The position numbers and the translations under genes are program-made. A model generated the notes under the pieces. It searched no databases. It was not told the origin of the DNA and worked only from the letters and a program-made list of their open reading frames with translations. A DNA stretch of 62,052 nucleotides, counting the filler, from Dugesia japonica (Eukaryota): the NCBI GenBank assembly GCA_001938525.1. It is 6 parts of 6 records of this genome, joined end to end, with 100 filler letters (N's around TTAATTAATTAA, not from the genome) between each part and the next. Parts side by side here need not be neighbours in the genome. Positions count along the whole stretch, not along the records: positions 29,199 to 42,642 come from MQRL01588633.1; 5 more parts are not named here. One strand, given 5' to 3'. Positions 29,099-56,084 of this stretch are shown one piece after another. Numbering within the stretch: the first letter of the stretch is position 1; every line of letters begins with the position of its first letter.

Positions 29099-29198
29099 NN
29101 NNNNNNNNNNNNNNNNNNNNNNNNNNNNNNNNNNNNNNNNNNTTAATTAATTAANNNNNNNNNNNNNNNNNNNNNNNNNNNNNNNNNNNNNNNNNNNN
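29099..29198. other. Artificial scaffold linker
   Basis: 44 N + TTAATTAATTAA + 44 N. Confidence 0.97.
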
Positions 29199-30173
29199 AT
29201 ATTTATCAGTAAAGGAAATAAAAGATGCCAGACCAGAGGTCGATAAACTGGATGTAAAAATAGCTACATATTCCAATAATAAAATTGATTTTATCTATCA
29301 TGAAATTCTAAGACAAGTAGATAGAATATATCAAGAAAGAATGATGAAAAATTGCAAAATTAAGCGGGAGTTGTTAAGAGCAAAAATGGCAATGGTAGTC
29401 ACAAATCCGGATTTAGTAGCTCCACTTTTGTTCGAAGAAAGAGGAACATTTGGAAGAATAGTGGGAGAAACTTTAGTGAGTTTTAAATGTAAACCAGTAG
29501 CTGTTACNNNNNNNNNNNNNNNNNNNNNNNNNNNNNNNNNNNNNNNNNNNNNNNNNNNNNNNNNNNNNNNNNNNNNNNNNNNNNNNAGAATTTTAACAGA
29601 TAAACATTATCAACCAAAAGTAATTGAAAAATGTAGTAATATCCTTGATCCTATGTACAAGCTAAATTAGGAAGTATGGATAACAGTGTCAGACAGGAAG
29701 ACAGCACCAACCCCACTAATGATGGAAATGATAGAGGTCGGTAGAACAACAGAATTGGAAAGGATAGATAATATGGCATTTATACAATTAATGATATTGA
29801 GAAGGATCGGAAACATGTTTTTCCAATACAAAGAGAGAAAATAATATCAATTATGGTCGATAAAGTAGCAAGAGGAAGTAATGGAGACGACGTAAATTTT
29901 GAATCATTATTACATGCAGATCATTTTAAAAGGGCAATGCGCAATTTCGTAGATAGATTTTTGGGGGGAATGCAATGGTTTGGTAATATATTCTCATGTA
30001 TTTTGTTCGGGTGGTATGTCTTGACATTTTTAAAATTAGCAGGTCATCAAATACTTTCTCTGAGACAACTACATGCAGTTTTCGGTTACATATGGAAATT
30101 GGGAGCATGTTTCTGCCCATTTATTGCAAAACACATGATTGTGCAAAATCACAGTGAAAAAATAAAGAATTAA
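29199..30173 (+). pseudogene. Class III-type (chuvirus G / gB-like) envelope glycoprotein, C-terminal half
   Basis: NNKIDFIY...RIY....NC..KR.L....P......G......GE.L....C.PV.V...RIL......C....P.Y....W pattern followed by a TM (FGNIFSCILFGWYVLTFL). Confidence 0.75.
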
Positions 30174-30203
30174 GAAAAGCATCGAGGCGTATATACAATA
30201 AAT

Positions 30204-33200
30204 ATGGAGGATGAGCAAAAGTTAAAAAAATTAACTAATGATAAATCATCAGAGACAGAATATAAACTATTTAAACAAGAAAATATTGTATTAGAACAAA
30301 TAAAGATAGATGATTTAACACAATATAAATATCAAAAGAATTACTCAATGTCAGTCATAGATTCAGATAATAATATACACACAACCGATATTATAATAAA
30401 TGGAATTAGTATACCTTCGTTAATAGATACAGGAACAGTATACTCCATAATAAAGGAATCGTGGTTAAATAAAGCACAAAGACAAAAAATAAAAAATTAT
30501 AAACCAGAAGGTATAAAATCATTCACGGGGCATATAATAAAAACAAAAGGCATAATTGAATGTACTGTCTTAATTGAACAAGAAATTGTGACCCATCCAT
30601 TTAGAGTGATGGAAAATGGAACACAGAATTGTATTTTAGGTATGGACTTTCTGGCAAGATTAAAATGGTACGTCATTGATTTGCAAGATAGCACACTGAA
30701 AATGGTGACACCAATACCAGTGCAAGGGGAAAGTAATGTGATATGTGCAGCAGAGTTGATAACAGTAGAACGTTGTAGTGAATGTATAATGCCCATAAAT
30801 ACAGAAATACAAAATAACAAGTCATAAATTTTTTTACCAAATCAGAAATTGATAGAAAAACATAATTTATCAATACTGTCTGGATGTGTAAAGCCAAGAA
30901 AAGGAATAATACCGATGAGAATAGCGAATTACAATAATTACGATGTGACAATTCAAAAAAACACAAAGTTAGGGAAGTTATTTAAAAATGGGAAAAAATA
31001 TGAAATATATGAAATTGTAATTGAAGAACAACAGAAGAGAGTGAACTTACAAGGGCAGAGTAAAAAATCAGTAAAAGAAGAGTGTAATGAATTTCTCGAA
31101 TTTATAATGGAAAAACAAGAGAAAATGAATAAAACAAGTAATAAAGAATTAATAAAACAAAAACAAACAAAATATTATGAGAAAGCAAAAATAACAAATA
31201 AAGATCTCACAATAAATCAGCGACAACAACTACAGAAACTATTGGACAAATATGAAGATGCATTCGCTAAACATGAGTTTGATATGGGAGGAACAAACAT
31301 TATAAAACATATAATCGATACAGGTAATGCAAGACCAATAAAACAGCGACCATATGTAGCACCATATGCGTTAAGACCAGAAATCAAAAGACAAGTTGCG
31401 GAACAAAAAGCGAATGGAATCATACGAGATAGTTTCTCTCAATGGGCATCGCCAATAGTACCAGTTAAAAAGAAAGACGGAGAAATTAGAATGTGCATTG
31501 ATTATAGAAAACTTAATGAAGTCACAAAAAAAGATACACACCCCTTTCCAAAGATACACGAGCAATTCAATAAATTAATGAATGCAAAATACTTTGCAAG
31601 TTTGGATACTAACAAAGGATACAATGTAATCCCAGTACAAGAAGAAGATCGAGAGAAAACAGCATTTTGTACTGATGATGGATTATAGGAATTTGTCAGA
31701 TTACCGTTTGGGTTATGTAACGCACCAGCTACATTTCAAAGGTTAATGAACACAGTGTTAACAGGTGTCGAACATGTAGTAGTGTATATGGATGATATTC
31801 TCATAGCATCGGAAACATTTGAACAACATTTGATTAACATAGAAAATGTATTGTCAAGAATTAGAAAAGCGAATATTAAGTTAAAACCCACAAAATGGAA
31901 GTGGGCAGAGGAAAGTGTGTGACTTCACTAGTCACAAGATTTTCCAGTGCCAAAGAGTGTACAACAATTACAAGGATTTAATGGACTAGTGGGATATTAT
32001 CGTAGATTCATACAAGATTTTGCAAAGATATCAGCACCATTGGTAGAGCTAACCAAAGGCATGAAAACGAAAGGTGAAAGTAAAAGTGTAATGATTGAGG
32101 AAGAATTAGATGAAAAATCAAAGAAGCCTCAGAAAAAATGGGGCCCAAAACAACAAGAGGCTTTCGAGACATTAAAACTACGATTGCTAACATCTCCAAT
32201 ATTAAAATATCCTGATTTCACAAAACAATTCATTGTGATGACGATAGCAAGTGGGTATGCTATGGGAGCAATGCTCGGTCAAGAAGAGGAGAAAAATAAA
32301 GATTATGTAATTGCATATGCTAGCAGAATGTTGAAAGGAGCAGAGACAAGGTATTCAACAATCGAAAAAGAATGTTTAGCCATCATATTTGCGTTAAAAC
32401 AATTTAGACCGTTTATATATGGAACAGAAATAATCATCCGAACAGATCATAAACCTTTAGAGGGTCTATGAAAGAATAAAGATGCACCCAGTAGAATACT
32501 GAAGTGGGCAATGAAAATTCAAGATATGAGCATACGTATTATATATAAGCCAGGTAGAGCAAACAAAAACGCCGATGCATTATCAAGAATCCCAGAAGTG
32601 AATATAGTGGAAATGATGTCAATTGTGATGACAGGAACCAACCCAAAAACGTTCTTAGAGGAACAAAAAAAATATAAACAAATACAAGGGATTAAAAAAA
32701 TGATGCTTCAAGAAAAGAATACTAAATATAATATGTATAAGAATTTACTTATGTACAATAATTTAGGGGAAAATCTGATGGTTATACCAGACTCTCTAAA
32801 ACAATTATTATTGTTACAATATCATGATGGAGCACTCGGAGGACACCTATCTAGCAAAAAAACCACGTCAAAGTTGCTACAAAAATATTATTGGGATAAT
32901 ATTAAAGAGGATGTAAAGAAATGGTGTCAAGCATGTAGTACCTGTGCCACAAGAAAGAATACAGGAACAAAAACCAAAGTTCCTCTACAACCAATGCCAA
33001 TACCCAGTTCACCAATGGAAACATGCGCAATGGATTTTTTGTGCAAATTACCAACGACTATAAAAGGCAATAAACATATATTAGTATTTATTCACTATTT
33101 CACAAAGTGGGCAGATGCATTTCCTACAAAAGATGAAACAGCAGATACAGTAGCAAAGTTATTAGTTGAAAAAATAATATACAAATATGGAGCGCCAAGA

Positions 33201-33890
33201 AAGTTACTATCCGATAGGGGAAAGAGTTTCCTCAATGAAGTCATACAAAGAGTGACAAATATGTTTGATATTAAAAAAATAAATACGACGGCATATCACC
33301 CATAAACTGATGGGTTAGTTGAAATATTCAACAGTACACTATGTAATAGATTGGCAGTTTTCGTAAATAAACATCAAAATGATTGGGATTTGTTTATTAA
33401 GCCAACACTATTTATACATAATACAACTGAAAACGAGGCCACGGGATATTCACCATTTTATCTTATGTATCTCAGACAAAATCATATGCCAATAGATATA
33501 ACATTTNNNNNNNNNNNNNNNNNNNNNNNNNNNNNNNNNNNNNNNNNNNNNNNNNNNNNNNNNNNNNNNNNNNNNNNNNNNNNNNNNNNNNNNNNNNNNN
33601 NNNNNNNNNNNNNNNNNNNNNNNNNNNNNNNGATTATTATTAAAAGATCATAATTTTAAAGTAGGAGATAAGGTGAGGATAAAAACACCAATCACACAGA
33701 AAGGATTAACCAATAAATTAGCAAGACCTTATAAGGTCCATATGAAGTAGTAAAAACAACTCCTACAAATTTACACATAATAAAGAACAAAAGGGACGAT
33801 CCCATGATTGTGGCAGTTAACCGATGCAAAATAGCAGAAGCAGAAATTGAACCTAAAAAACAACACAAATATAACCTTCGATCAGGATCA
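30204..33890 (+). pseudogene. Gypsy pol: aspartic protease, dUTPase-fold-like spacer, RT, RNase H, integrase with GPY/F domain
   Basis: LIDTG, ILGMDFL, WASP, RMCIDYRKLN, YMDD (31785), YASR, TDHKPL, N..ADALSR, H..GH...C..C, SDRG, TTAYHP.TDGLVE, GPYEV; all ORF pieces share one frame. Confidence 0.97.
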
Positions 33891-34745
33891 CAAAGTGCAT
33901 TACCACTCTTTACACTAACTCTGTTGACATTATTAACAGTGGGAGCAGCTCAACTTGAAAAGGAAGAGAGTTTTGGCTATATAAAAGAGATAATCTATTC
34001 AGATAGAATCATACTCAGGGCACCTGACAACATAGCGATCGTTGCAGTGATAAAAGATAAACCAGTCACATATGATATATCAAGCAAATACATCAAGAGA
34101 AAAGAACGTATTCTTCTACCATGGAAAGTGTATAAAGGGATATGCCAGATAGAGATAGAAGGATTAGAGGCCAATAAAAAATATAGAATTTGGATAAGTT
34201 ATCAGATAAAAGGAATCAAATCAGTAAAACAATATGTAGTCACTACGTTACAAGAATAACGAATTATATCACAAAAATAGTTATTGAATATTACCGCAAT
34301 ATTACAAAGAAAGTTGAGTACAACCAGACCACCAAAGAAGACGGAATTTATAACTAGCCCTACGAGACAAAAGAAGTTAGGTACAATAAAACAAAACATA
34401 GAAACAATTAATCATTACAATACACTAATATATCATAATGTTGCAGTGAAAACGAACAAAAATCCTAAGAGAAACAGACAGACTTGGATTAATAGCATAA
34501 GTCCAGATCATCAACAATTGCGACATAAAATTCTACAAATGTGGATTACAACCACAAGAAAACCATTTGACATGAAAATATTATATCACCCTTTTTCAAT
34601 ATTGGGAACAATNGCATTACTCTTCCTCCTCGCTTTCATAATTACATTAATCCAAATACATAAGCGATATAGGTGGAAGAGGCAGCGTTATCGGCGTCGT
34701 AATGCCCCACAAATTCCAAATTATGTCCAATGGACATTGGTCTGA
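33891..34745 (+). pseudogene. Type I membrane protein fused in frame after integrase (signal peptide, FN3-like domain, Thr-rich stalk, TM, basic tail)
   Basis: ALPLFTLTLLTLLTVGAA; IEGLEANKKYRIWI; STTRPP...TSPT; ILGT.ALLFLLAFIITLIQI; KRYRWKR...WTLV; two internal stops. Confidence 0.65.
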
Positions 34746-35191
34746 ACACCCTACACAAAATATGTTAAAATTCTATATCATTATTTATATATATTTTTAT
34801 TTATATTATAAGCTACTAACACATGTGGCAGTATGTNNNNNNNNNNNNNNNNNNNNNNNNNNNNNNNNNNNNNNNNNNNNNNNNNNGCGTTATCGGCGTC
34901 GTAATGCCCCACAAATTCCAAATTATGTCCAATGGACATTGGTCTGAACACCCTACACAATATATGTTAAAATTCTATATCATTATTTATATATATTTTT
35001 ATTTATATTATAAGCTACTAACACATGTGGCAGTGTGTAGGACTAGCCAGTCCTTAAAATAAAAAGTTAATCATTACATCGTTTTAGAAACAACAACTCA
35101 AACAAAGATATCAGAAACAAGCCAGATCAATCAATACATTATAGTATATAACAGACAAATCACGAAATACCATTCATTTACATACTACATA

Positions 35192-37258
35192 ATGCAGTCA
35201 AAGCAGCACGCTACACACAATCAACAGTCGAACAATAATGTACAGAGAACACAACAATATGAACAAGCAAGTCATAGCATAAAAAGCAAAGAGAACAGGA
35301 GTAACGAATTAATACAGTCAATGCACAATAAATCTACACACCCGGCAAACATCCCTTCATCTTCATCCTTAATCACAAAAGGTGTCGCGCATTTTTATAA
35401 TCATATACCAAGTTTTGTGTTCAAAGATAAAGATAGTGAACCTAGAATAGAAGTATTTAACGGTGTAAATACAATCCCGAATGTCTTAAAAAACAACAAT
35501 TTTGATAAAGATATCATTATGATACGATTTCAAAAGGCTCAGAGAAACTCAATACAACAATTGATAGGATAAATAGAAATAGAGAAAGATCCACAAGAAG
35601 CACTGTTAAATGGCAAACGAATACTTAAAGAAATTAGATTACATGTTACAAAGACTCCTATTATATTCTCGTACAGAAAAAGAGATATCCATATCTTGGC
35701 AAACAAAACACTGATATTAGACGGAAAAAAGATCCAGGAGTGAACAACATAAAAATTGCGATACAGGACATTCCAGCCGTTCTTTGTGTAGAATTAATTT
35801 ATCATGAACGCATTCCTGTACCTTTTCCTACATATACTGCTATAAAAGGACATTGCCCAGTGGACTATATAGACCTAATTAACCATACATCGTCCTTAAA
35901 ATATGCAATTTTAACAGAACCTGATATTGAACAATTAATAGTATATGTAGATATGATAACAGTCAAAGATTCATATTTCAATTTGCAAGTGGTAGAATTA
36001 ACTATATTAAATAATAAAGGAGAAATTATATTGGATGAAACCCTATGTCCACGAGAAAGGATAATACATTTTGGCACGCCAAGTACAGGGTATACCCATG
36101 AAAAGATAAAGAAATATAAAGATGCATACCCTACAATTTTGAAGGCACGACAGCTGCTGTATGGAAAAATACTTGTCGGCTTTGAATTAGGAAATAAATT
36201 AACGAGTTTACATATTGACCACAGACATGTTATTGGTATCAAGGATCTTACGGAAGACAGATGGCGTAGGATGTATACTCCAAATATCAAAAAGTTAAAA
36301 TTGATCAACCTTATGGAGGTAGTATTCAAATCCATGAAGCAGGATAGAGTAATCGAGGATATGTTAGAAACAGCGAGAGAAAAAGCACAAGAATCGACAG
36401 CCAAACGGATAACATTTATAAAGATTACATATAAACAGTTAATTACTCAGCAACCGTGGAAAGATTCTATATACCCTGGTAGTAATCCGGGTATGAAAGG
36501 TATTGAAAATAATGAGCCAAAATTGCCAGAAGTCATGATAAGAGAAAAGGAGAAACCAGATAGTGTGGTATGGATATTGGACTCTGAACAAGATTCGGAT
36601 ATAAAAGATAATGAAGAAGAGACAGATGGAAGTACAGATAGTAGATACGATGAGAATAATGGCATAGATACAGAGTGGGACGAGGAAGACTTACCAGAAG
36701 AACTCAGACCGCATAACGACACTGGGGAACAGCGGAGACTGATAGAGGATATAATACGACGAAATCCTAGGATGGTACAGACAGATATGGACGCATCTGA
36801 AGGTGATGATGTTCCAGAACGGGCAATGTCACAAAAAGAACAAAGGGAGGCTGAAAGTGAAACTGAATACTGGTCAGGTGAAGAGGTAGAAGATCTTAGT
36901 TTAGATCAAGTACGATGAGATTGTGAAGGAATACCGCATCATATGGATAGCGACAGTGATGACCTCGGTCCTGAGCCACAAATTGATATATATGACCCTA
37001 GTACGGACACATTCAATTTGAATAAAGCCCTCAAAATAGATAAGTGGGATGGAAATATTAGCAGTGCAAAAAATAACTTTGAAAAGGATATCGGGTAAAG
37101 ATATGCAACTACAATTTGGAAAGAAACGCATTAGATTGACAACCATTAAAGAAGGCAGTAAGAAGACATAAACGTTTGTCGTTGAAAATGTTTTGCTAAA
37201 CACCATTGCGGTAACAGAAAAGGGTGCCACACTTACACTATCCATTAACAATGATTAA
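35192..37258 (+). pseudogene. Accessory ORF with a REX4/ISG20-like DEDDh exonuclease fold (catalytic residues altered) and an acidic region
   Basis: LTILNNKGEIILD...P...I..F.T..TG, LLYGKILVG..L.N.L..L, IKDLT; continuity across stops and shifts from 35192 is inferred. Confidence 0.75.
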
Positions 37259-37334
37259 AATATATATTATCTGTATTTAGTATTGCTATTATAGTTTTCT
37301 CTTTATACTTATTATTGACATTATATATTTTAGA

Positions 37335-38597
37335 ATAAATTGCAATTTTCAATCCCAAAAACTATTTTTATTAAACAAAGCACACATACCACTATATGAA
37401 AAACACAGAAATCTCACAAACCCTTACAACTACTGCTGGCAAGATATTGCATTAATTACCTTGTTCACCGAAGAAAATCCCGTATGTCCCCTATGTTATG
37501 ATCAACCTGTGGTACCCCGAATAGCACCTTGTGGACACTTCTTTTGCTTCGCTTGCATAAACCAGTATTTTCATGTTACCAACTCTGATAACGTACCTTG
37601 TCCTTCTTGTAGGACACAGAAAATATATGACACTAAACTCAAACGCGCCAGTTTTTGTTACATTAATAAGCCTCGTGTCGAACAGTTTATTTCATTTACT
37701 CTCCTGATTAAAATGCCTGATAATAATAGCACACGCTTTGCTCATCTTACTCCTGTAATTCAGCAGATAGATGTCCCTAGTTGTTGCAACCCCATTAGCA
37801 AGTTCCAAGAAATCTGCATCCAATCCGATTCTTTATCAATAAAACAGATTAACAATGATATTAGAACAATTAGTTATGGCCAGTTAGCTGCAGCGCAAAA
37901 AAAGAAATTGATAAAAATACTTAAAACAGAAAGAACACATTTCACATTTAATATTAAAATTCTTGATAAGTTGGAACACGAAAAGTCGTTTACGGATAGA
38001 ACCCGGAATACAGACAAGTTTAATCTTCTCGTCCATCACCCTACATTATCGAACGTAAGATTATTTTATCAAACAGCTATCTATTCACGAACTTTTCTCA
38101 ATAGTGTGCAGACGAAACGACTTTTGAAAAATCAATCGGAAGATATTCCTTTTCGCATGGGTGGTTTCATCACGGTCATAGAAGTAGCTATTGATCACCA
38201 TTTAGATATAGATAAAATATATCATTTCCTGCCTAATCAAACGAAAATAAGACTCGTGACGATCCGAATGGACACTTCCTCCACATCAAGACATTTTGGT
38301 CCTTTGAGTTATCTATACATTCATGCTAATATAACAAGGCTAGCTATGAAGAGGCGTAATAAAGAATTGCAAGACATCGCAAACGAGAGTAAAGCTAGGA
38401 AGGGTCGACCAGCCCGGATACTCACCCATCGTGCCAATACAAACAAAATAGATATTTTTTCTAGAAGTCCTTCTGTTTCCCCATCCTTCATAAATCTAGA
38501 AGATAATTTCCCAGCGTGTATTTTTAATGAACCTTGTTCCGATAACACCATTTCATCATTCCAAGATATTGCCTGTCCTTATTTCGCGTTTACCTAA
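37335..38597 (+). CDS. RNF10/Mag2-like C3HC4 RING E3 ligase
   Basis: NCNF...P....W.DI......CPLC...P..PRIAPCGH.FCFACI.QY......CP.C; the frame is open back to a TTTTAG acceptor at 37333. Confidence 0.75.
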   Translation: MNCNFQSQKLFLLNKAHIPLYEKHRNLTNPYNYCWQDIALITLFTEENPVCPLCYDQPVVPRIAPCGHFFCFACINQYFHVTNSDNVPCPSCRTQKIYDTKLKRASFCYINKPRVEQFISFTLLIKMPDNNSTRFAHLTPVIQQIDVPSCCNPISKFQEICIQSDSLSIKQINNDIRTISYGQLAAAQKKKLIKILKTERTHFTFNIKILDKLEHEKSFTDRTRNTDKFNLLVHHPTLSNVRLFYQTAIYSRTFLNSVQTKRLLKNQSEDIPFRMGGFITVIEVAIDHHLDIDKIYHFLPNQTKIRLVTIRMDTSSTSRHFGPLSYLYIHANITRLAMKRRNKELQDIANESKARKGRPARILTHRANTNKIDIFSRSPSVSPSFINLEDNFPACIFNEPCSDNTISSFQDIACPYFAFT

Positions 38598-38618
38598 AGA
38601 TGACGGAGCAACTTTTTC

Positions 38619-39496
38619 GGAGAAGGAACGTTTGTTGAGGTTTGAATAGTTTAAACAGACAAGCAACACACAATAAACATAGCAGAGCAAAATTTATACA
38701 ACACACAATAAACATAGCAGAGCAAATTTCCTAAATCAATTAGTTAACTCAAGTCCTCAAATCAATATCAATCCCTGAAAAATCAATCCAACTCAAATGT
38801 GTTGACATTATATTTGAAAAAATGTGCTGACATTATATTTTATTGTGACATCATATTTTATTTGGAATTTCAATTTTATTGTGACATTATATTGTATTGT
38901 GACATTATATTTTATTTGGAATTTCATGAAAATTTGGATTATTCGAAAATATATTGATTTTATTGTATAAACAATTTAGACTATTAGTTAATGTTAAGAA
39001 TTTTATTGTATAAACAATTATGGCATATAATTTATTTTACGACGAATTAATAATCATGGAAATTTTTTATGAAAAATTTTATTGGATATAATTTATTTTA
39101 TGTAAACTAATAATCATGTAAGTAATTTATATGGAAAATTTTATGTAAACACTAGGTCAATGCATGAAGGCCTAGTGTGAATTTTACCATAAATACTGAC
39201 GTATGTCAGTTTATTGTTCAGAAAAAATTTAATTTAGAGAACCTATCTCTTTCTCTACTTTAAAATTAAACTGAGCGATATAAGTGTAATTATCCTAATC
39301 AAAATGTCAATTATAGAAGTATGAGTTGTGTTTTTATTTTAAATGTGGAAATTTACATAAATCAGTTATTTATATTTTTGCTTAAACTATATTCTTATAT
39401 AATAGTTGTATTTACACACACACAAAGGAAAATTTTGAGTCTCCCAAAAAAATTCATTATTGAACATTATACCTTATTGTTTTTAAATTCTTACCA
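38619..39496 (+). repeat. Polypurine tract and putative 3' LTR
   Basis: GGAGAAGGAA then TGTTGAG at 38633; internal direct repeats; CATAAATA plus TCAGT initiator-like site near 39190; right end uncertain. Confidence 0.6.
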
Positions 39497-39506
39497 TAAA
39501 ATCTTT

Positions 39507-39997
39507 TGTTGAGTTAGATACCCAACAGTATTAATGCTGTTATCGTTTATAGTGCATTCTTATCTTAAACGCTCGGTGGCTCCGACCAAAAAGGTGCGGG
39601 AATCTAGCGAAGATCTCGAAATGAAATGGAATCTGTAAAAGCTGGCCAAACGCCGTTGGGAAACCGACACTTTTACGGCAGAAAGCAAAGTTAAACGTTA
39701 CAAGTCGAAACGTATAGCCTTTAGGAAGGAAAGAATGTGTAAAACACAAATAGAATCGTTCACGGAAATCATCTGGTCCCTCTATGACCGTGAGAATAAA
39801 CTTGTGCATGACATTCTTGAATTAAGGAGAATACCGCTTGAGCCACTTATGATAGATAAGGGTACTCAAACCTCGAGCCACTGAGCTCTACCTCTGTTGT
39901 TCATTTGTAAATAAAATACTCCTTGAATTTGTACTAATTTATTTTGTCTTGACTTGATGGCTTTATTGGCATAATTGAAATTATGATATATTCAATA
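39507..39997 (+). repeat. Possible second (solo) LTR, or the distal part of the same LTR
   Basis: TGTTGA...TCAATA ends; AATAAA near 39910; no clear TSD. Confidence 0.4.
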
Positions 39998-40594
39998 AAA
40001 TTTTTATCTTAACGGTTATTGTTTGTTTAGTGCCTCGTATCCAACTACCTACTATTCTGCGCAAATGTCATCGTTTAATACAGAAGTTACTTTTGGAAAG
40101 GCATAATAAACGCCAAAATAAATGCGCCCTCTTAAGAAACCTCACACAAAGAAATCGATTGATCAAAAAACTCGATGTGATATTTAAAAAACAAGGCGAT
40201 TTGGCCGAACAGGCAAAACAGATCCTGAATCATAAAATACAGTTTCTGCAGCAATATATAAATGTGGATTCGCTGGAATAGCGAGGATGATGATGCCACT
40301 TTTTTTTGATTCGAATGTATTCTAAAATTGTTTTTGATAAATTAAAAGAAAAGGAAATTGTTGAACCCGAAACAAAGATATACGTGGGTGCACCTCAAAT
40401 AAATGTTGGAGATCAACCGCTCTATACCGAACATCTAAATAGGGACTTTAGATTAAATTCTTGAAAGGGTCCCCTGAGGGCTGTTTTTCCCAGCCGTACT
40501 TTTTCTACCACAAACTTAGGTGGGATCCCAACACTTTTTTTATTTCTGAAAACTGGGTATTTCACACAAACATTATTATTAGAAAAATAATTAT

Positions 40595-40706
40595 TAATAT
40601 TATTGCTATTATAATCCAAATTATTGCGAGAATAATTGTTGGACTTAAAAATTGATCGCATTTGAGATTTCATCAAAATAAAGAAAAAGCTTCGATCAAA
40701 ATAAAA
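40595..40706 (-). repeat. Hairpin-repeat family copy
   Basis: Reverse complement of 9863-9959. Confidence 0.8.
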
Positions 40707-40749
40707 TGTATTTTTATGGGAATTTTCGACTGTTGTCTTCTTCGGGTAT

Positions 40750-40935
40750 ATGATCAGCCCAGACTTAGCTCCATCAGATAATCACTTATTTCGGTCAATG
40801 AGTCATTTTCTGATTGGCAAGAAATTTAATTCAGTAACACATATCAAAAGTGGAGTCATTGAGTTTTTGCAGTCCAAGCCACCAGAATGGTATCAGAAAG
40901 GAATCCAAAATTTAGCTGATAGATGGTTAAATACC
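40750..40935 (+). pseudogene. mariner transposase C-terminus
   Basis: SPDLAPSD.HLFRSM...Y..GI..L..RW. Confidence 0.9.
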
Positions 40936-52014: not shown

Positions 52015-52754
52015 TTTCAACAAATCAAAATCATTCATGATGAAATGGATCATCTCAGTAGATACATCCGTGCGCACAAAACCACCTCCCCCCGCTGGAA
52101 AAGTGCTATGATTTTTTGGTTTGATTTTTTGTATAATTTGTTGGTTTAAAATTTTTGAATATTGATTGGTCAAAAAGTTGTATTGAAAATATTTTCTTTT
52201 TGGAAATTTTATTTGTCGAAATTTTGGTCAGAAAAGTGGAATTTTGAATTTTTGGTTTTTAATTTTTTTTCAGTCAATTTTTATTGTATAGTTTCAAATT
52301 TAGTATCGCCAGTTAAGACATACGATTGTTCCATAATATATATCTATAAAATTGAATTTTGAAATTTTTGCATCCATGTGGCGAATTTTTCAAATTTTAT
52401 CAAGCAAATTGAATAAATCTGAAGTAATGTTATTCACATATCCTTGAAAATACAAATTTCTAAGCCCTAGTTTCACTAGTTTTCCTACCACGAACACATT
52501 TGCACATAAAGGGTCATATTTTACAAGTATTAGAGTAGGAAATAACTCTGGTTCGAACCAACAGTTGACTATTCTTGCTAATTTATACAAATTTATTAAA
52601 ACTCCCATATTTACGACAATTGTTAGTAACTGTAATTGTAAATTTTTTATAAAATAGGGGTTCACATTATGCGGTTCTAATGGTTTCTTACATCCCATTA
52701 TTCTTGATTTTATTGACCTAGAGTAAATAATTGAATATTTATCCCTTTTGACTT

Positions 52755-52945
52755 TGTTAGGTAAATCTTCAATTGTTAATTCATTTTGCAAATCAGAATT
52801 CATATTGTTAGACATTTTTTATTTTACTACTACAAACTATATTTCATAAGATAAATAATTATGAAATACAAGTATTTAAATATTAATATTTAGATGTCTC
52901 AATTCCTAATGGGTGAGATTATTAATTAATAATTATTTTCTCATA
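52755..52945 (-). repeat. 3' LTR
   Basis: Near-identical to 56024-56214; preceded by AAAAAAGGGGA on the minus strand. Confidence 0.93.
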
Positions 52946-52995: not shown

Positions 52996-54820
52996 CTAGC
53001 CATTGTCTCCTTGTATTGCACACCACCTTTCGTGAATTTTTTCAATTATTCGATAAGGTCCTTCAAATCTGCCTTGACTTTTATTTCTTGTTTCTACATT
53101 GATGAGTACAAAATTGCCCACTTTAAATTCTCTTTTAGTAATCACGTCTGAAATGGTTTTTTTAGTTTTATCTGACACGTCTGACTTGTATAAGTTTATT
53201 TGGTAATTTTCCTTCTAAAAAACGAAGTAAATCTTCTTCCGTACAAGTAATGTTTGAAATGCAGACAGAAATAATAAACAGCCAATAAATCCTTTCGTGT
53301 AATGTAGTATCCTTTTTCATGACTCGTTATTGAGTGTGATCCATAGGCAACAAATCTTTCTCTTCCTTCTTTATCTCTCTGTGACAATACTGCTCAATTG
53401 TATCGAAACTTGCATCTGTATCTAATATAAATTCTTTGTTTATGTCCGGACAACACAATATTGGTACAGTCCTTAGAGTTGTTTTCAGTCCATTCTAATT
53501 TCTTGTTGCTTGGTCCGCTACACAATTGCTCTAATATCTTTAACTTTCTTGCGTAGTTTTCTATAACCTTATTGTAATAATTACAAATTCCCAAGAAACC
53601 TCGTAACTTCTTCACACAGTTAGATTTGCCAAATGTTCTTATTGCTTCTATTTCATACACCATCCTGGTAATTATGTGTCCAAGAAACTTGATTTCGTTT
53701 TGAAGAAACTCACACTTCTCTGGATTTAATCTTAGACCAGCCTACATTATTTCCATCAATACTTTAACAATGACTTCATAGTGTTGATCTTTATTGTTCG
53801 TAAATATCAGAATGTCATCAAGATAAACTATGGCTCCACTGATTCCGCCAACCACTTTTGTCATCATCTCCTGAAATGTCCCTGGTGCCGCTGCGATGCT
53901 AAATGGTATTCTATTAAAACAATATTGTCCGTATTTCGTTGAAAACGCTGTTTTTTCTTGAGATTCTTCTTTGAGGTATACCTGATAGTATGTATTTCTT
54001 AAATCTATTGAACTGAAATATTTGGAGACATCTTACTTTTGCAGCATTTCATCGACATTAGGCATCGGAAAGGCTTGTCCTTTTGTTACTGCATTCAACT
54101 GTCTGAAATCCAAACATATTCTTATGTCCTTCTTTTTTTCCAAACACAGATCAATGGAATATTCCATGGATAGTTGCATTTTCGGATAATATTATTCTCA
54201 AAAAGGTTTTGGATAGCTTTTTCAATTTTAGATTCTAAGTTCATTGATTGTCTGTACGGTTTTACATTGATTGGTTCAACACTTGTGATTATTTTGTGTC
54301 TTTTCACATTTGTACGTTTTACATCCAATTTAACTGCTATAGAAACATATTTTTTACTTTCAATTATTTTCAATAACTGTTGGTCCTCTGTAATCTACAA
54401 ACTATTTAAACCTCTTGTCAATCGCTCTCCATTTTTAATTTTTCTTCCGAATTTCGCTTCAATATTACAAATTTTCGACTTTTTCATCCGTTTTGCTATC
54501 GATCTTTCGTATAAGCTGATATCTAAAAATCTTCTGCATATCTATTCCTCCTATCTGATCTGGTGTCACTCTTTTAGGAACTAAAAAAGTAATCTCTTAG
54601 CAGGCTTCATCAATTATCACTCCAGTTCTAACTTTCCCAACAATTTCAAGTGTTCTAATGTTTCCACAACGCAATCTTTCATGACTCATTTCTAAATTTA
54701 CTTCTCGTAATTTAATAAAACAAATCAAACTCATCACGTTAATTTGAGCCCCTGTAGCTAATAGACATTCGACTTTATCTCCTTGAATTGAGACTGTAAC
54801 ACTAGGTTTGCCTTGCAATT
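52996..54820 (-). pseudogene. Gypsy pol remnant
   Basis: CLLATGAQ (catalytic D lost), PWN.P...V.K, CLDFRQLN, KTAFST, YLDD, LRGFLG..NYY, HF.HYLYG, FEGPY. Confidence 0.9.
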
Positions 54821-55179
54821 TATGGTACGAAATATTTATTTTCTTTTTTGCTTCAACTGTTTCAATCCATTCAACTTTTCTACCATCTGTAAAATTTCAC
54901 CTCTTTAAGAAACTGTATGCTTTTTCTGTAACTTTTCCTATATCATCCCACTTTTCGACCCCTTAAGGATATTTACTCACTTCATTTAACAATGGATGGC
55001 TCCAACCAACTCCTCTACTGGTGGAGTCTGCCTTTTGGGTACTGCCTTTTGGAATCACTTTCATATACTTTCTCATATTCATCGTCTGTACTGACATCTT
55101 CATCTTTAATCGCATGTATTCGGTTATATCGGTTTCTTGATCTTTCTGCATTCATAAATTTATCATTGGTTCTTTTCCT

Positions 55180-56084
55180 TTTAAAATTTGTGTAGCACTA
55201 TTCTGCTCTATTTCCACTATTACAACATCGTTTACACCTCACGTCTTGACATAACCGTCTTATTTGGGCAACGTTTCCACTACCAAAACATTTTGTTGGT
55301 TTTTTATTTTGACAATCTCGACTTATATGTCCTGTTTTATGACAACTCCAGCACTCTACCACTTTTTTTTCGGACAACTTGCTTTAGTATGACCGATCTT
55401 ATGATATGACCAACATTCGATATTTTGTTTTTCCTTTCTTTGCTCCACATGTCTATTCAGTGTACGATTTACAGGTTTCTGATAATTTCGGTTTGTAACT
55501 CTCGCGTAACTTCTAACTTCATCAACTCGATCTCTGTTTTTCTCTACTCGATCTACTAACGTCATTGTTTCTTCAATTTCTTCTATATNNNNNNNNNNNN
55601 NNNNNNNNNNNNNNNNNNNNNNNNNNNNNNNNNNNNNNTTATCTGAACAATATACTAGCATCTTTGTAACCATTTTTTCTTCAGTAAAATCTTTATTTGT
55701 AAATAATCTTTCCACTAAATATTTTACATTTCTAAAATGAAATTAAATCTTTTCATTTCCACGCCTGTAGTTAACCAAATTTTGAAAATCTTTCTCTTTC
55801 TCAAATGCCATACGCAAACGAGCCTGAAAATCTTCAACTTTTTTCAACTTCATTGCATATTCTTCCAACAAATCGTCATCTAGCAAACAAGAGACTAATC
55901 TCTCCTATTTCATGTTTCATCTGAAATATGTTTTTAACTTCAAAATACAATTCACACCTTTTGATAAATTTCTAAATATCATCTCCTCTGCAGTAATAGA
56001 ATCGGTATTTACCGCTCCCACAATGTTAGGTAAATCTTCAATTGTTAATTCATTTTGCAAATCAGAATTCATATTGTTGGAAAT
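55180..56084 (-). pseudogene. Gypsy gag with multiple CCHC knuckles, frame starting inside the 5' LTR
   Basis: ECW..HK.GH....C, ECW.CHK.GH....C and C..CG...H....C knuckles. Confidence 0.8.

Follow-up and report, generated by a model that had tools for sequence, protein, structure and literature searches.

Positions 29199..39496 of the window, our term for the whole 62,052-nucleotide stretch of Dugesia japonica DNA that was analysed, hold one copy, 5'-truncated and decayed, of a gypsy retroelement that is present in multiple copies (Table 1). A sequence-only reading had proposed a module order on a common strand, and this is borne out by Pfam, whose matches run Monjiviricetes_fusion, aspartyl protease, RVT_1, RT_RNaseH, Integrase_H2C2/rve and C3HC4 RING across the stretch. 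The full order is Env, protease (PR), reverse transcriptase (RT), RNase H (RH), integrase (IN), signal peptide, fibronectin type III domain (FN3), transmembrane helix (TM), exonuclease ORF, RING ORF and polypurine tract (PPT). The PR–RT–RH–IN series, with YxDD and DDE, is the hallmark of Ty3/gypsy elements (Metaviridae). No Gag was found upstream within the window, and a search of Rfam gave no matches.

Table 1. Features of the element, in coordinates of the window
Feature	Position	Strand	Basis
gB/chuvirus-type Env, middle piece	29200..29670	+	PF24664; 5' part lost at scaffold gap
Env C-terminal piece	29772..30170	+	PF24664 positions 477-608, E 2e-14
Aspartic protease, DTG present	30387..30659	+	PF13975 E 2e-9
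Reverse transcriptase, YMDD present, stops inside	31464..31930	+	PF00078
RNase H	32139..32462	+	PF17919/PF17917 E 1e-35/5e-31
Integrase: H2C2 finger, DDE core, C-terminal GPY module	32784..33845	+	PF17921, PF00665
Y-x-L-R motif, end of IN	33867..33884	+	motif counts
Predicted internal signal peptide	33894..33950	+	hydropathy; equivalent position in relatives
Predicted FN3 domain	33996..34256	+	AF2 model and VIA-align
Stalk, Thr/Pro-rich stretches, two stops in window copy	34260..34595	+	read-through with X
Second predicted TM helix, basic cytosolic tail, class I PDZ-type C-terminus, stop	34596..34745	+	hydropathy, motif count
152-bp duplicate flanking 50-N gap	34685..35038	.	likely assembly overlap
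Broken accessory gene	35192..36918	+	N-terminal domain, pseudo-exonuclease, acidic tail
Clade-specific N-terminal domain	35390-35707	+	frame 2
DEDDh-fold pseudo-exonuclease	35674-36564	+	frame 1
RING ORF with unassigned ~300-aa C-terminal part	37281..38597	+	PF00097 E 2e-7
PPT, inferred	38619..38628	+	purine run, depth, position
Probable 3' LTR, TG start inferred	38633..39500	+	sequence, TRF, multi-copy depth

A gB/Monjiviricetes-type env ahead of pol is detected by PF24664 both in the window and in the relatives L006, L008 and L010. The middle piece of the window Env contains an N gap at 29508-29586; its portion at 29200-29505 matches profile positions 300-388 of PF24664 (Monjiviricetes_fusion) with E 8e-14, and the piece aligns at 33% to the Env of L006/L010. 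Hydropathy predicts the Env TM helix near 29988-30044. In the available part of a published gB-env table (PMC13524379), the YQESD motif in the Env of L006/L010 is matched by Schmidtea rows only, and three variants of the motif give five matches, all five in Schmidtea rows. The window Env does not contain the YQESD stretch, and the window is linked to L006/L010 by the IN tree.

Within Pol, the window RT carries a 17-codon in-frame deletion relative to six of six relatives, and the integrase is interrupted by N's at 33507-33631 and, according to tblastn frames, shifts frame near 33735. No Pfam match to a dUTPase was found between PR and RT in the window or in the long relatives; the published call of a dUTPase-like domain at this place in Burro used HHpred. 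The motif at the end of the integrase is present as Y/H-x-L-R in 13/13 clade members, and Y-x-L-R occurs in the last 200 aa of 8/117 controls. It resembles a chromatin-binding peptide of foamy-virus Gag, as given in the accessible part of PMC12125541, and by this analogy could possibly serve as a nucleosome tether.

All eight ORF starts picked out by the sequence-only reading (29853, 30204, 30849, 31947, 32511, 33351, 33804 and 34284) do lie in frame 3. Nine stops interrupt this frame outside the N-gap region (30171, 30825, 31686, 31920, 31929, 32469, 33303, 34257 and 34278), and three of the nine, as judged by eye, hit columns kept in unbroken relatives, in agreement with the statement that conserved codons had been struck. 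The frame change near 33735 had also been anticipated: the L010 match lies in frame 1 over 33643-33735 and continues in frame 3. The window's first env piece, in correction of an earlier note, reads in frame 1; the second shares frame 3 with PR.

Three N gaps lie inside the stretch, other-copy depth varies ~100-fold between modules, and among the contigs listed none spans the whole stretch, all of which would fit a scaffold chimera, or unrelated repeats joined at the gaps, a danger that had already been raised. We consider such an origin highly improbable because gap lengths are collinear with those of relatives, at both the IN gap (249 nt here versus 252-255 nt in 8/8 relatives) and the env gap (249 nt here versus 246 nt in 2/2 relatives), and because gap-free relatives share the module order. 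The third gap, 50 N at 34837-34886, is flanked by the two copies of the duplicate, which differ by two mismatches; the duplicated tail end, exonuclease, RING and PPT all lie on one gap-free piece, 34887-40935. Diverged contigs, moreover, tile the exonuclease-RING spacer and span RING-PPT-LTR.

The accessory gene downstream of the tail begins before 35638, a correction to the earlier delimitation: its N-terminal domain is encoded by the frame-2 ORF at 35063. Its exonuclease is an ISG20/ISG20L2/SDN1-like DEDDh protein by fold and sequence similarity (SDN1 E 3e-4; ISG20 E 0.012; Atlas RNase_T 0.94), and an intact paralogue in L002 gives E 1e-13. The catalytic D-E-D-H-D set is lost in 5/9 sequences (the window and four relatives) and kept in 4/9. 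The ORF is present downstream in 6/7 informative loci, intact in some and dead in the window copy, so that the pseudo-exonuclease travels with the lineage, as had been suggested. Literature searches on exonuclease ORFs turned up no account of such an arrangement.

The C3HC4 RING lies at 37485-37610, and, as a further correction, no in-frame ATG precedes it in the window copy. Diverged copies of the RING ORF are present in sequencing runs. The RING is absent from 15/15 fetched loci, and no homologue was found among 1,014 candidates, among 4 longer candidates or in the viral contigs; the ORF is confined to the window's subfamily. For a link to RNF10/Mag2-type ribosome quality-control RING ligases, searches gave no named orthologue beyond generic C3HC4 RING similarity. 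The label of RNA/ribosome quality-control genes finds no support here: the exonuclease is ISG20/ISG20L2/SDN1-like, and searches tied the RING to no named host family.

The proposed 3' end stands in part. The PPT is one of two purine runs of at least 10 nt with at least 4 G in 36900-40100, coincides with a depth spike from other copies at 38565-38695, and sits behind the final ORF, just as it does in L008 and L011. The probable 3' LTR contains 18- and 62-bp tandem repeats (TRF); its right end is not fixed, and no partner LTR occurs within the window. Another purine run lies downstream, at 39723-39735, and an ORF at 39639-39884 has no Pfam match and no same-strand match from the relatives' accessory ORFs. 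One RNA run gives thin, mostly partial env-pol coverage from diverged copies and none over 36647-38214, and a second gives no coverage over 36600-40398.

Unbroken relatives on metagenome contigs share 49-53% IN identity with the window; the 12 relative loci, all from just two metagenome assemblies, were retrieved through an IN motif specific to the clade. In all three loci that reach env (L006, L008 and L010), everything between Env and the second membrane anchor is encoded by a single ORF of 3,184-3,703 aa, which in L006 is open at its 5' end and in L008 and L010 also carries Gag zinc knuckles. The proposed single polyprotein, with two membrane proteins bracketing Pol, is thus what the env-reaching loci encode. 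In 7 of the 11 loci extending past IN, plus P0003, no break separates IN from the signal, ectodomain and TM; the remaining four, interrupted or cut short, keep the signal segment. In L010 the four hydrophobic segments come in the order signal, TM, signal, TM by hydropathy, which is the order required by a topology threaded twice through the ER. L006 has an extra signal-FN3-TM module between two proteases, which leaves the topology even; the Env signal of L006 and the Env TM of L008 fall below the hydropathy cut-off. All 11 tail-bearing integrases fall on one side of a branch with SH-aLRT 99, versus 80 others, in a tree built by a quick method from rows without a Burro reference. Ankyrin repeats occur only in L002/L007 and a weak UBX in L008, MATH, BIR and BCL2 have no Pfam matches in 3/3 long relatives at E 0.01, and the viral contigs match neither the IN motif nor alignment A2.

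The FN3 fold ascribed to the second ectodomain is upheld by an all-beta AF2 model (pLDDT 73), which leans towards FN3 because its alignment rows were picked by an FN3-like motif; VIA-align places it on a tenascin FN3 with Z 10.8 and rmsd 3.0 over 86 aligned residues. Nearly all of the best 50 VIA-align rows are FN3 proteins, the closest being FN3 domains of adhesion proteins and cytokine receptors. A profile match to fibronectin reaches E 2e-5 with the motif-biased alignment, and the ectodomain does not reach the Pfam fn3 threshold. Against a profile of the relatives' repeats the window ectodomain is undetected (3.1 bits, a score equalled or exceeded in 38/499 shuffles), as are those of L003, L004, L005, L008, L011 and L012, so that the case for clade-wide homology is made by position, topology, fold and terminus. 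The PDZ-type terminus lies at 34734-34742 in the window; an S/T-x-V/L end closes 8/10 complete tails versus 1/117 controls, and 0/12 accessory ORF ends, with a background of 4.5%. No strongly hydrophobic segment was found in the last 200 aa of any of 117 other IN-bearing proteins. Separately, a search of representative sequences with the post-IN protein returned two matches, repeat-concatenated and by eye resembling a protocadherin membrane region, which we rejected as compositional.

We think it probable that the polyprotein threads the ER twice, yielding a gB-type fusogen and an FN3 membrane protein likely used for attachment or junction targeting. By prediction, Gag would stay cytosolic, the first signal would direct Env into the lumen, the Env TM would bring PR-RT-RH-IN back to the cytosol, the signal after IN would send the FN3 ectodomain into the lumen, and the second TM would leave the PDZ-type tail cytosolic. 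Signal peptidase and the element protease may then release the pieces 1:1 at secretory membranes, where host PDZ scaffolds could hold the FN3 protein and so position budding or docking where cells touch, with membrane fusion left to Env. Host RNA-silencing or antiviral factors would be the likely targets of the DEDDh protein and the RING. To our knowledge env-bearing Metaviridae have been described with one envelope protein, and herpesviruses divide fusion and attachment.

Alternatively, the tail could serve chiefly to anchor Pol in the ER membrane while assembly proceeds, its FN3 domains and C-terminus being passive. With env between gag and pol, Pol must be gathered at the budding membrane, for which a C-terminal anchor would suffice; the Env TM already tethers Pol, however, and neither the lumenal FN3 array, with its one to several repeats, nor the conserved PDZ-type C-terminus would be required for anchoring alone, which makes this account improbable. 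Rather less remote, and still on the unlikely side, is a role at the surface of the producing cell, where the protein would modulate the host (as a decoy receptor, adhesion mimic or PDZ-scaffold hijacker) and play no part in the particle or in entry. The ectodomains are barely alignable while IN keeps 49-53%, as in an arms race, but receptor-binding proteins also typically evolve fast; the adhesion and cytokine-receptor fold matches would suit a modulator. On the other hand, translation in one frame with Gag, Env and Pol would make the protein as abundant as the particle components and put it on the membranes that they occupy. In favour of modulation, Burro elements are rich in host-regulatory domains, according to the sections of PMC6431247 consulted.

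With considerable doubt, the twice-threaded polyprotein can be extended by analogy to a two-glycoprotein entry system: a flavivirus-like Gag-Env-Pol-adhesin polyprotein with a class III fusogen, an FN3 attachment protein whose PDZ tail steers it to junctions, and a companion DEDDh exonuclease that may guard or clear a very long RNA genome like nidovirus ExoN. A conserved PDZ-type end on an ectodomain diverged beyond alignment suggests a split between fusion and attachment or junction-targeted cell-to-cell spread, and the second membrane protein offers a concrete handle on Burro-like infectivity and tissue-specific patterns. The predicted topology would be that of an LTR element with a signal-peptidase-based polyprotein and Pol tethered at both ends.

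The sequence-only reading had regarded the architecture as unrecognised, which does not hold, as in-frame gag-env-pol is already published in the parts of PMC6431247 and PMC13524379 consulted here. Its pointer to Burro was apt: there too Env lies in frame between gag and pol, and matches mononegavirus fusion glycoproteins (PMC6431247). GAG-ENV-POL with gB-type env is known from flatworms, nematodes and bryozoans (PMC13524379). The likeness to Burro/GYPSM1, the planarian giant gypsy, extends to one huge ORF, accessory domains and ORFs, ankyrin repeats (here in L002/L007) and tandem repeats (here in the probable LTR). The same portions of the Burro account mention neither a post-integrase signal-FN3-TM protein with a PDZ-type end nor a DEDDh exonuclease ORF or separate RING ORF. 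Burro ORFs are also longer (4.9-5.1 kaa versus 3.2-3.7 kaa in the relatives here) and contain MATH, BIR, BCL2, SUMO-like and ankyrin domains, from which the relatives differ; the window copy is without its 5' half. Element length above 25-30 kb and the RT clade of Burro1-4 are further Burro hallmarks.

The gB-type errantiviruses, six Schmidtea elements included, have the same gene order and env type, and fibronectin, exonuclease, RING and Burro go unmentioned in the main text of PMC13524379 as far as it was accessible. No LTR is listed there for the six Schmidtea elements, for which the LTR search extended 3 kb past pol; this fits long 3' accessory regions such as the 3.9 kb in the window. Within the literature covered, in which Burro is represented by PMC6431247, no conserved second membrane protein is described for such elements, and judged from sequence this protein, fused after integrase, appears to be what is new relative to known gag-env-pol elements.

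In bdelloid Juno/Vesta elements, too, pol is followed by accessory ORFs with an exonuclease or a TM segment (available sections of PMC5408684), but their exonucleases are RNase D-like DEDDy proteins in separate ORF3s, whereas here the enzyme is DEDDh and ISG20/ISG20L2/SDN1-like, has a clade-specific N-terminal domain and in many cases is inactivated or duplicated, and the TM protein shares the reading frame of Pol. The planarian secretory cell nidovirus offers an analogy only, with its single giant polyprotein, captured ankyrin and fibronectin modules and DEDDh exoribonuclease (PMC6211748, in the part consulted); it is an unrelated (+)RNA virus, its fibronectin modules are type II, and its ExoN is a proofreader within the replicase. 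The lineage described here is likely related to the planarian Burro/Schmidtea errantiviruses.

Pfam matches on the plus strand bear out the module order that the sequence-only reading had claimed. A Monjiviricetes (chuvirus/gB-type) fusion protein comes first, in two pieces, followed by protease, RT, RNase H and integrase, with a C3HC4 RING further downstream. All eight ORF starts quoted in that reading lie in frame 3, and the frame shift suspected near 33500-33735 is visible as a frame change. Frame 3 holds nine stops outside the gap region. The extent of decay had been understated: the first env piece lies in a different frame, 17 codons are missing from the RT relative to 6/6 relatives, the exonuclease gene is divided over two frames, and the RING lacks an in-frame ATG upstream. 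Gag and the 5' LTR are indeed absent, env lacks its 5' part, and the element's 5' limit is a scaffold gap. In this copy and in two relatives a purine tract comes after the last ORF, and conservation among other copies is highest there. This copy is itself dead. The window is eukaryotic, AT-rich, full of gaps and dense in mobile elements; its base composition and the element's clade suggest a planarian host.

Coordinates of the element and of other features in the window
Feature	Position	Strand	Remarks
Gypsy element	29199-39496	+	decayed, 5'-truncated
Frame change	near 33735	+	
Exonuclease N-terminal domain	ORF at 35063	+	frame 2; 17.8 bits vs 5.5 for the best of 500 shuffles
Purine tract	38619-38628	+	
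81-aa ORF	39639-39884	+	beside or within probable LTR
Very high-copy repeat	39744-39874		shared by part of the 81-aa ORF
Paired 44-N runs	29099-29198		scaffolding artefact, with five similar sites; element cut off at one; 12-nt AT palindrome between runs where inspected
Polinton/adintovirus-like fragments (likely)	117-1133; 13288-15072; further ORFs to ~20 kb		partly duplicated; an ORF with PLA2-like and rve integrase domains; DNA_pol_B_2 polymerase pieces; ORFs resembling packaging ATPase and protease, by eye
LINE-like RT fragment	21.1-23.1 kb		by eye
Mariner-like fragments	~26.9 kb; 40.6-41.1 kb		by eye; depth very high at 40.57-40.93 kb
TBP-like ORF	52390-52818	-	PF00352, E 2e-5; TE-rich surroundings
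Second decayed gypsy element	53208-55532	-	RT-RH, trace of gag; ~32% identical to the studied clade

The co-occurrence of modules across the N gaps, where a chimera had been feared, is borne out by spacing that is collinear with relatives, both at the integrase gap (249 nt in the window vs 252-255 nt in 8/8 relatives) and at the env gap (249 vs 246 nt in 2/2). Because a 152-bp duplicate with 2 mismatches flanks the third gap, the end of the tail, the exonuclease, the RING and the polypurine tract share a single gap-free piece. The spacer between exonuclease and RING is tiled by diverged contigs, and a diverged contig covers the RING, the polypurine tract and the LTR start; the run that gave the latter carries the label of a second organism but belongs to a study that also produced another of the runs, which makes cross-contamination possible. 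Read depth in DNA runs with the same organism label, which does not measure copy number, is far above ~15 (the depth of contigs identical to the locus) in all bins, highest over env-pol and lowest in the FN3 and RING bins. It is very improbable that the locus was joined from unrelated pieces.

We examined the best 120 of 133 integrase matches. The three best have a long hydrophobic tail C-terminal to the integrase, and the other 117 of these 120 show no strongly hydrophobic segment over their final 200 residues. A scan for the integrase zinc-finger motif, which is biased to clade members but distant from the tail, yielded 12 metagenome loci from two assemblies; a genome scan gave three loci, one an additional clade member. 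Of the resulting 13 clade loci, two stop inside the integrase, and all 11 that extend past it have both a Y/H-x-L-R motif and, C-terminal to this, a signal-like segment. The segment follows the motif directly, except in L002 and L007 (minus strand), where a second protease-like domain and ankyrin repeats intervene. Seven of the 11 are unbroken to the second TM helix; L003, L005, L012 and L013 are broken or cut. Relatives' integrases are 49-53% identical to the window's. An integrase tree of 91 rows, built by a quick method, puts the 11 tail-bearing rows together on one side of a branch (support 99); excluded were five partial matches, P0089-P0121, duplicates P0002 and P0004, and loci L001, L003, L005, L009 and L015. 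L013, a member of this clade of animal-type retroelements, sits in a bacterial MAG record labelled Turicibacter, likely by contamination.

The proposed single polyprotein, with two membrane proteins bracketing Pol, is found as one ORF in all three relatives that reach env: L006 (3,426 aa), L008 (3,184 aa) and L010 (3,703 aa), the last two with Gag knuckles inside it. As read from their sequences, these unbroken relatives settle the architecture. The L006 ORF (2-10279) has an extra signal-FN3-TM module at aa 1585-1770, between two protease domains, which would take its polyprotein through the membrane, in and out, three times.

Modelled with AlphaFold from a 9-row alignment, the window ectodomain is all-beta (pLDDT 73). 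Against 48,161 chains, FN3 domains fill the top (Z 10.8, rmsd 3.0, 86 aligned), and the alignment profile matches fibronectin (E 2e-5), both matches being biased by the choice of rows for an FN3-like motif; the ectodomain did not reach Pfam fn3. A profile of the relatives' repeats found further repeats in L010, L006, P0003 and L013 and detected neither the window domain (38/499 shuffles score equally high) nor six other ectodomains. The ectodomain is very fast-evolving. Its protein ends in S/T-x-V/L/I, the established form of a class I PDZ-binding motif and here a putative one, in 8/10 complete termini vs 1/117 controls among the matches listed (120 of 133); no accessory ORF has this ending (0/12), and its frequency among tail 3-mers is 4.5%. 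That the tail is a mere Pol anchor seems improbable. Since Y-x-L-R also occurs in 8/117 ordinary elements among the same 120 of 133 matches, it likely marks the ancestral integrase end, where the membrane module would have been added; the motif also resembles the nucleosome-binding peptide of foamy-virus Gag that is described in the available part of PMC12125541.

An exonuclease-like ORF lies downstream of the polyprotein in L002, L006, L007, L008, L010 and L011; in L004 the contig ends within its N-terminal part, and 2.3 kb of decayed L003 showed no such ORF. The family is DEDDh, nearest in the PDB to SDN1, ISG20L2 and ISG20. The catalytic set is kept in 4/9 sequences and lost in 5/9, the window among them, in agreement with the pseudo-exonuclease originally described; loss goes beyond mere decay because four open-frame relatives share it. 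L002 and L007 have two tandem paralogues, one dead and one intact, and the last ORF of L002 looks ubiquitin-like by eye. The 'ribosome quality control' label is unproven: the RING is a generic C3HC4 without a homologue in viral contigs or homologue searches. It is absent from 15/15 loci, two of which reach the polypurine tract, and is limited to the element's own subfamily.

Beyond what is shown, namely the module order, the relatives' single frame, the clade, the terminus and the fold model, hydropathy predicts a topology of signal, Env ectodomain, TM, cytosolic Pol, signal, FN3 ectodomain, TM and cytosolic tail. Signal peptidase and the element's protease would then free Gag, Env, the enzymes and the FN3 protein in equal molar amounts at secretory membranes. 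We moderately favor a division of labor in which Env would fuse membranes and the FN3 protein would attach particles or, through PDZ scaffolds, focus budding at cell contacts. That the FN3 protein is instead a host-modulating surface protein is a less probable alternative.

The feature is real, and what surprises is that a second membrane protein whose PDZ-type end is conserved occurs throughout the clade. The position of env is no surprise: the architecture had been called unrecognised, yet the available text of PMC6431247 already reports, for planarian Burro, an Env with mononegavirus-like fusion matches in frame between gag and pol. The post-integrase FN3 membrane protein was not found in the literature searched, and Grohme 2018, figures or Repbase records may already annotate it. 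We group the element with those of GAG-ENV-POL order and gB-type env that PMC13524379, in the part available, describes from flatworms, nematodes and bryozoans; in that part of its table, the Env motif carried by L006 and L010 is restricted to Schmidtea rows. We call it Burro-like, not Burro, because the large ORF with extra domains was not found in the relatives and the integrase tree was built without Burro references. Exonuclease ORF3s, of DEDDy type, are described for rotifer LTR elements in the available part of PMC5408684, and a planarian nidovirus, as far as the accessible text of PMC6211748 describes it, offers an analogy: it has a single giant ORF, captured modules and a DEDDh enzyme.
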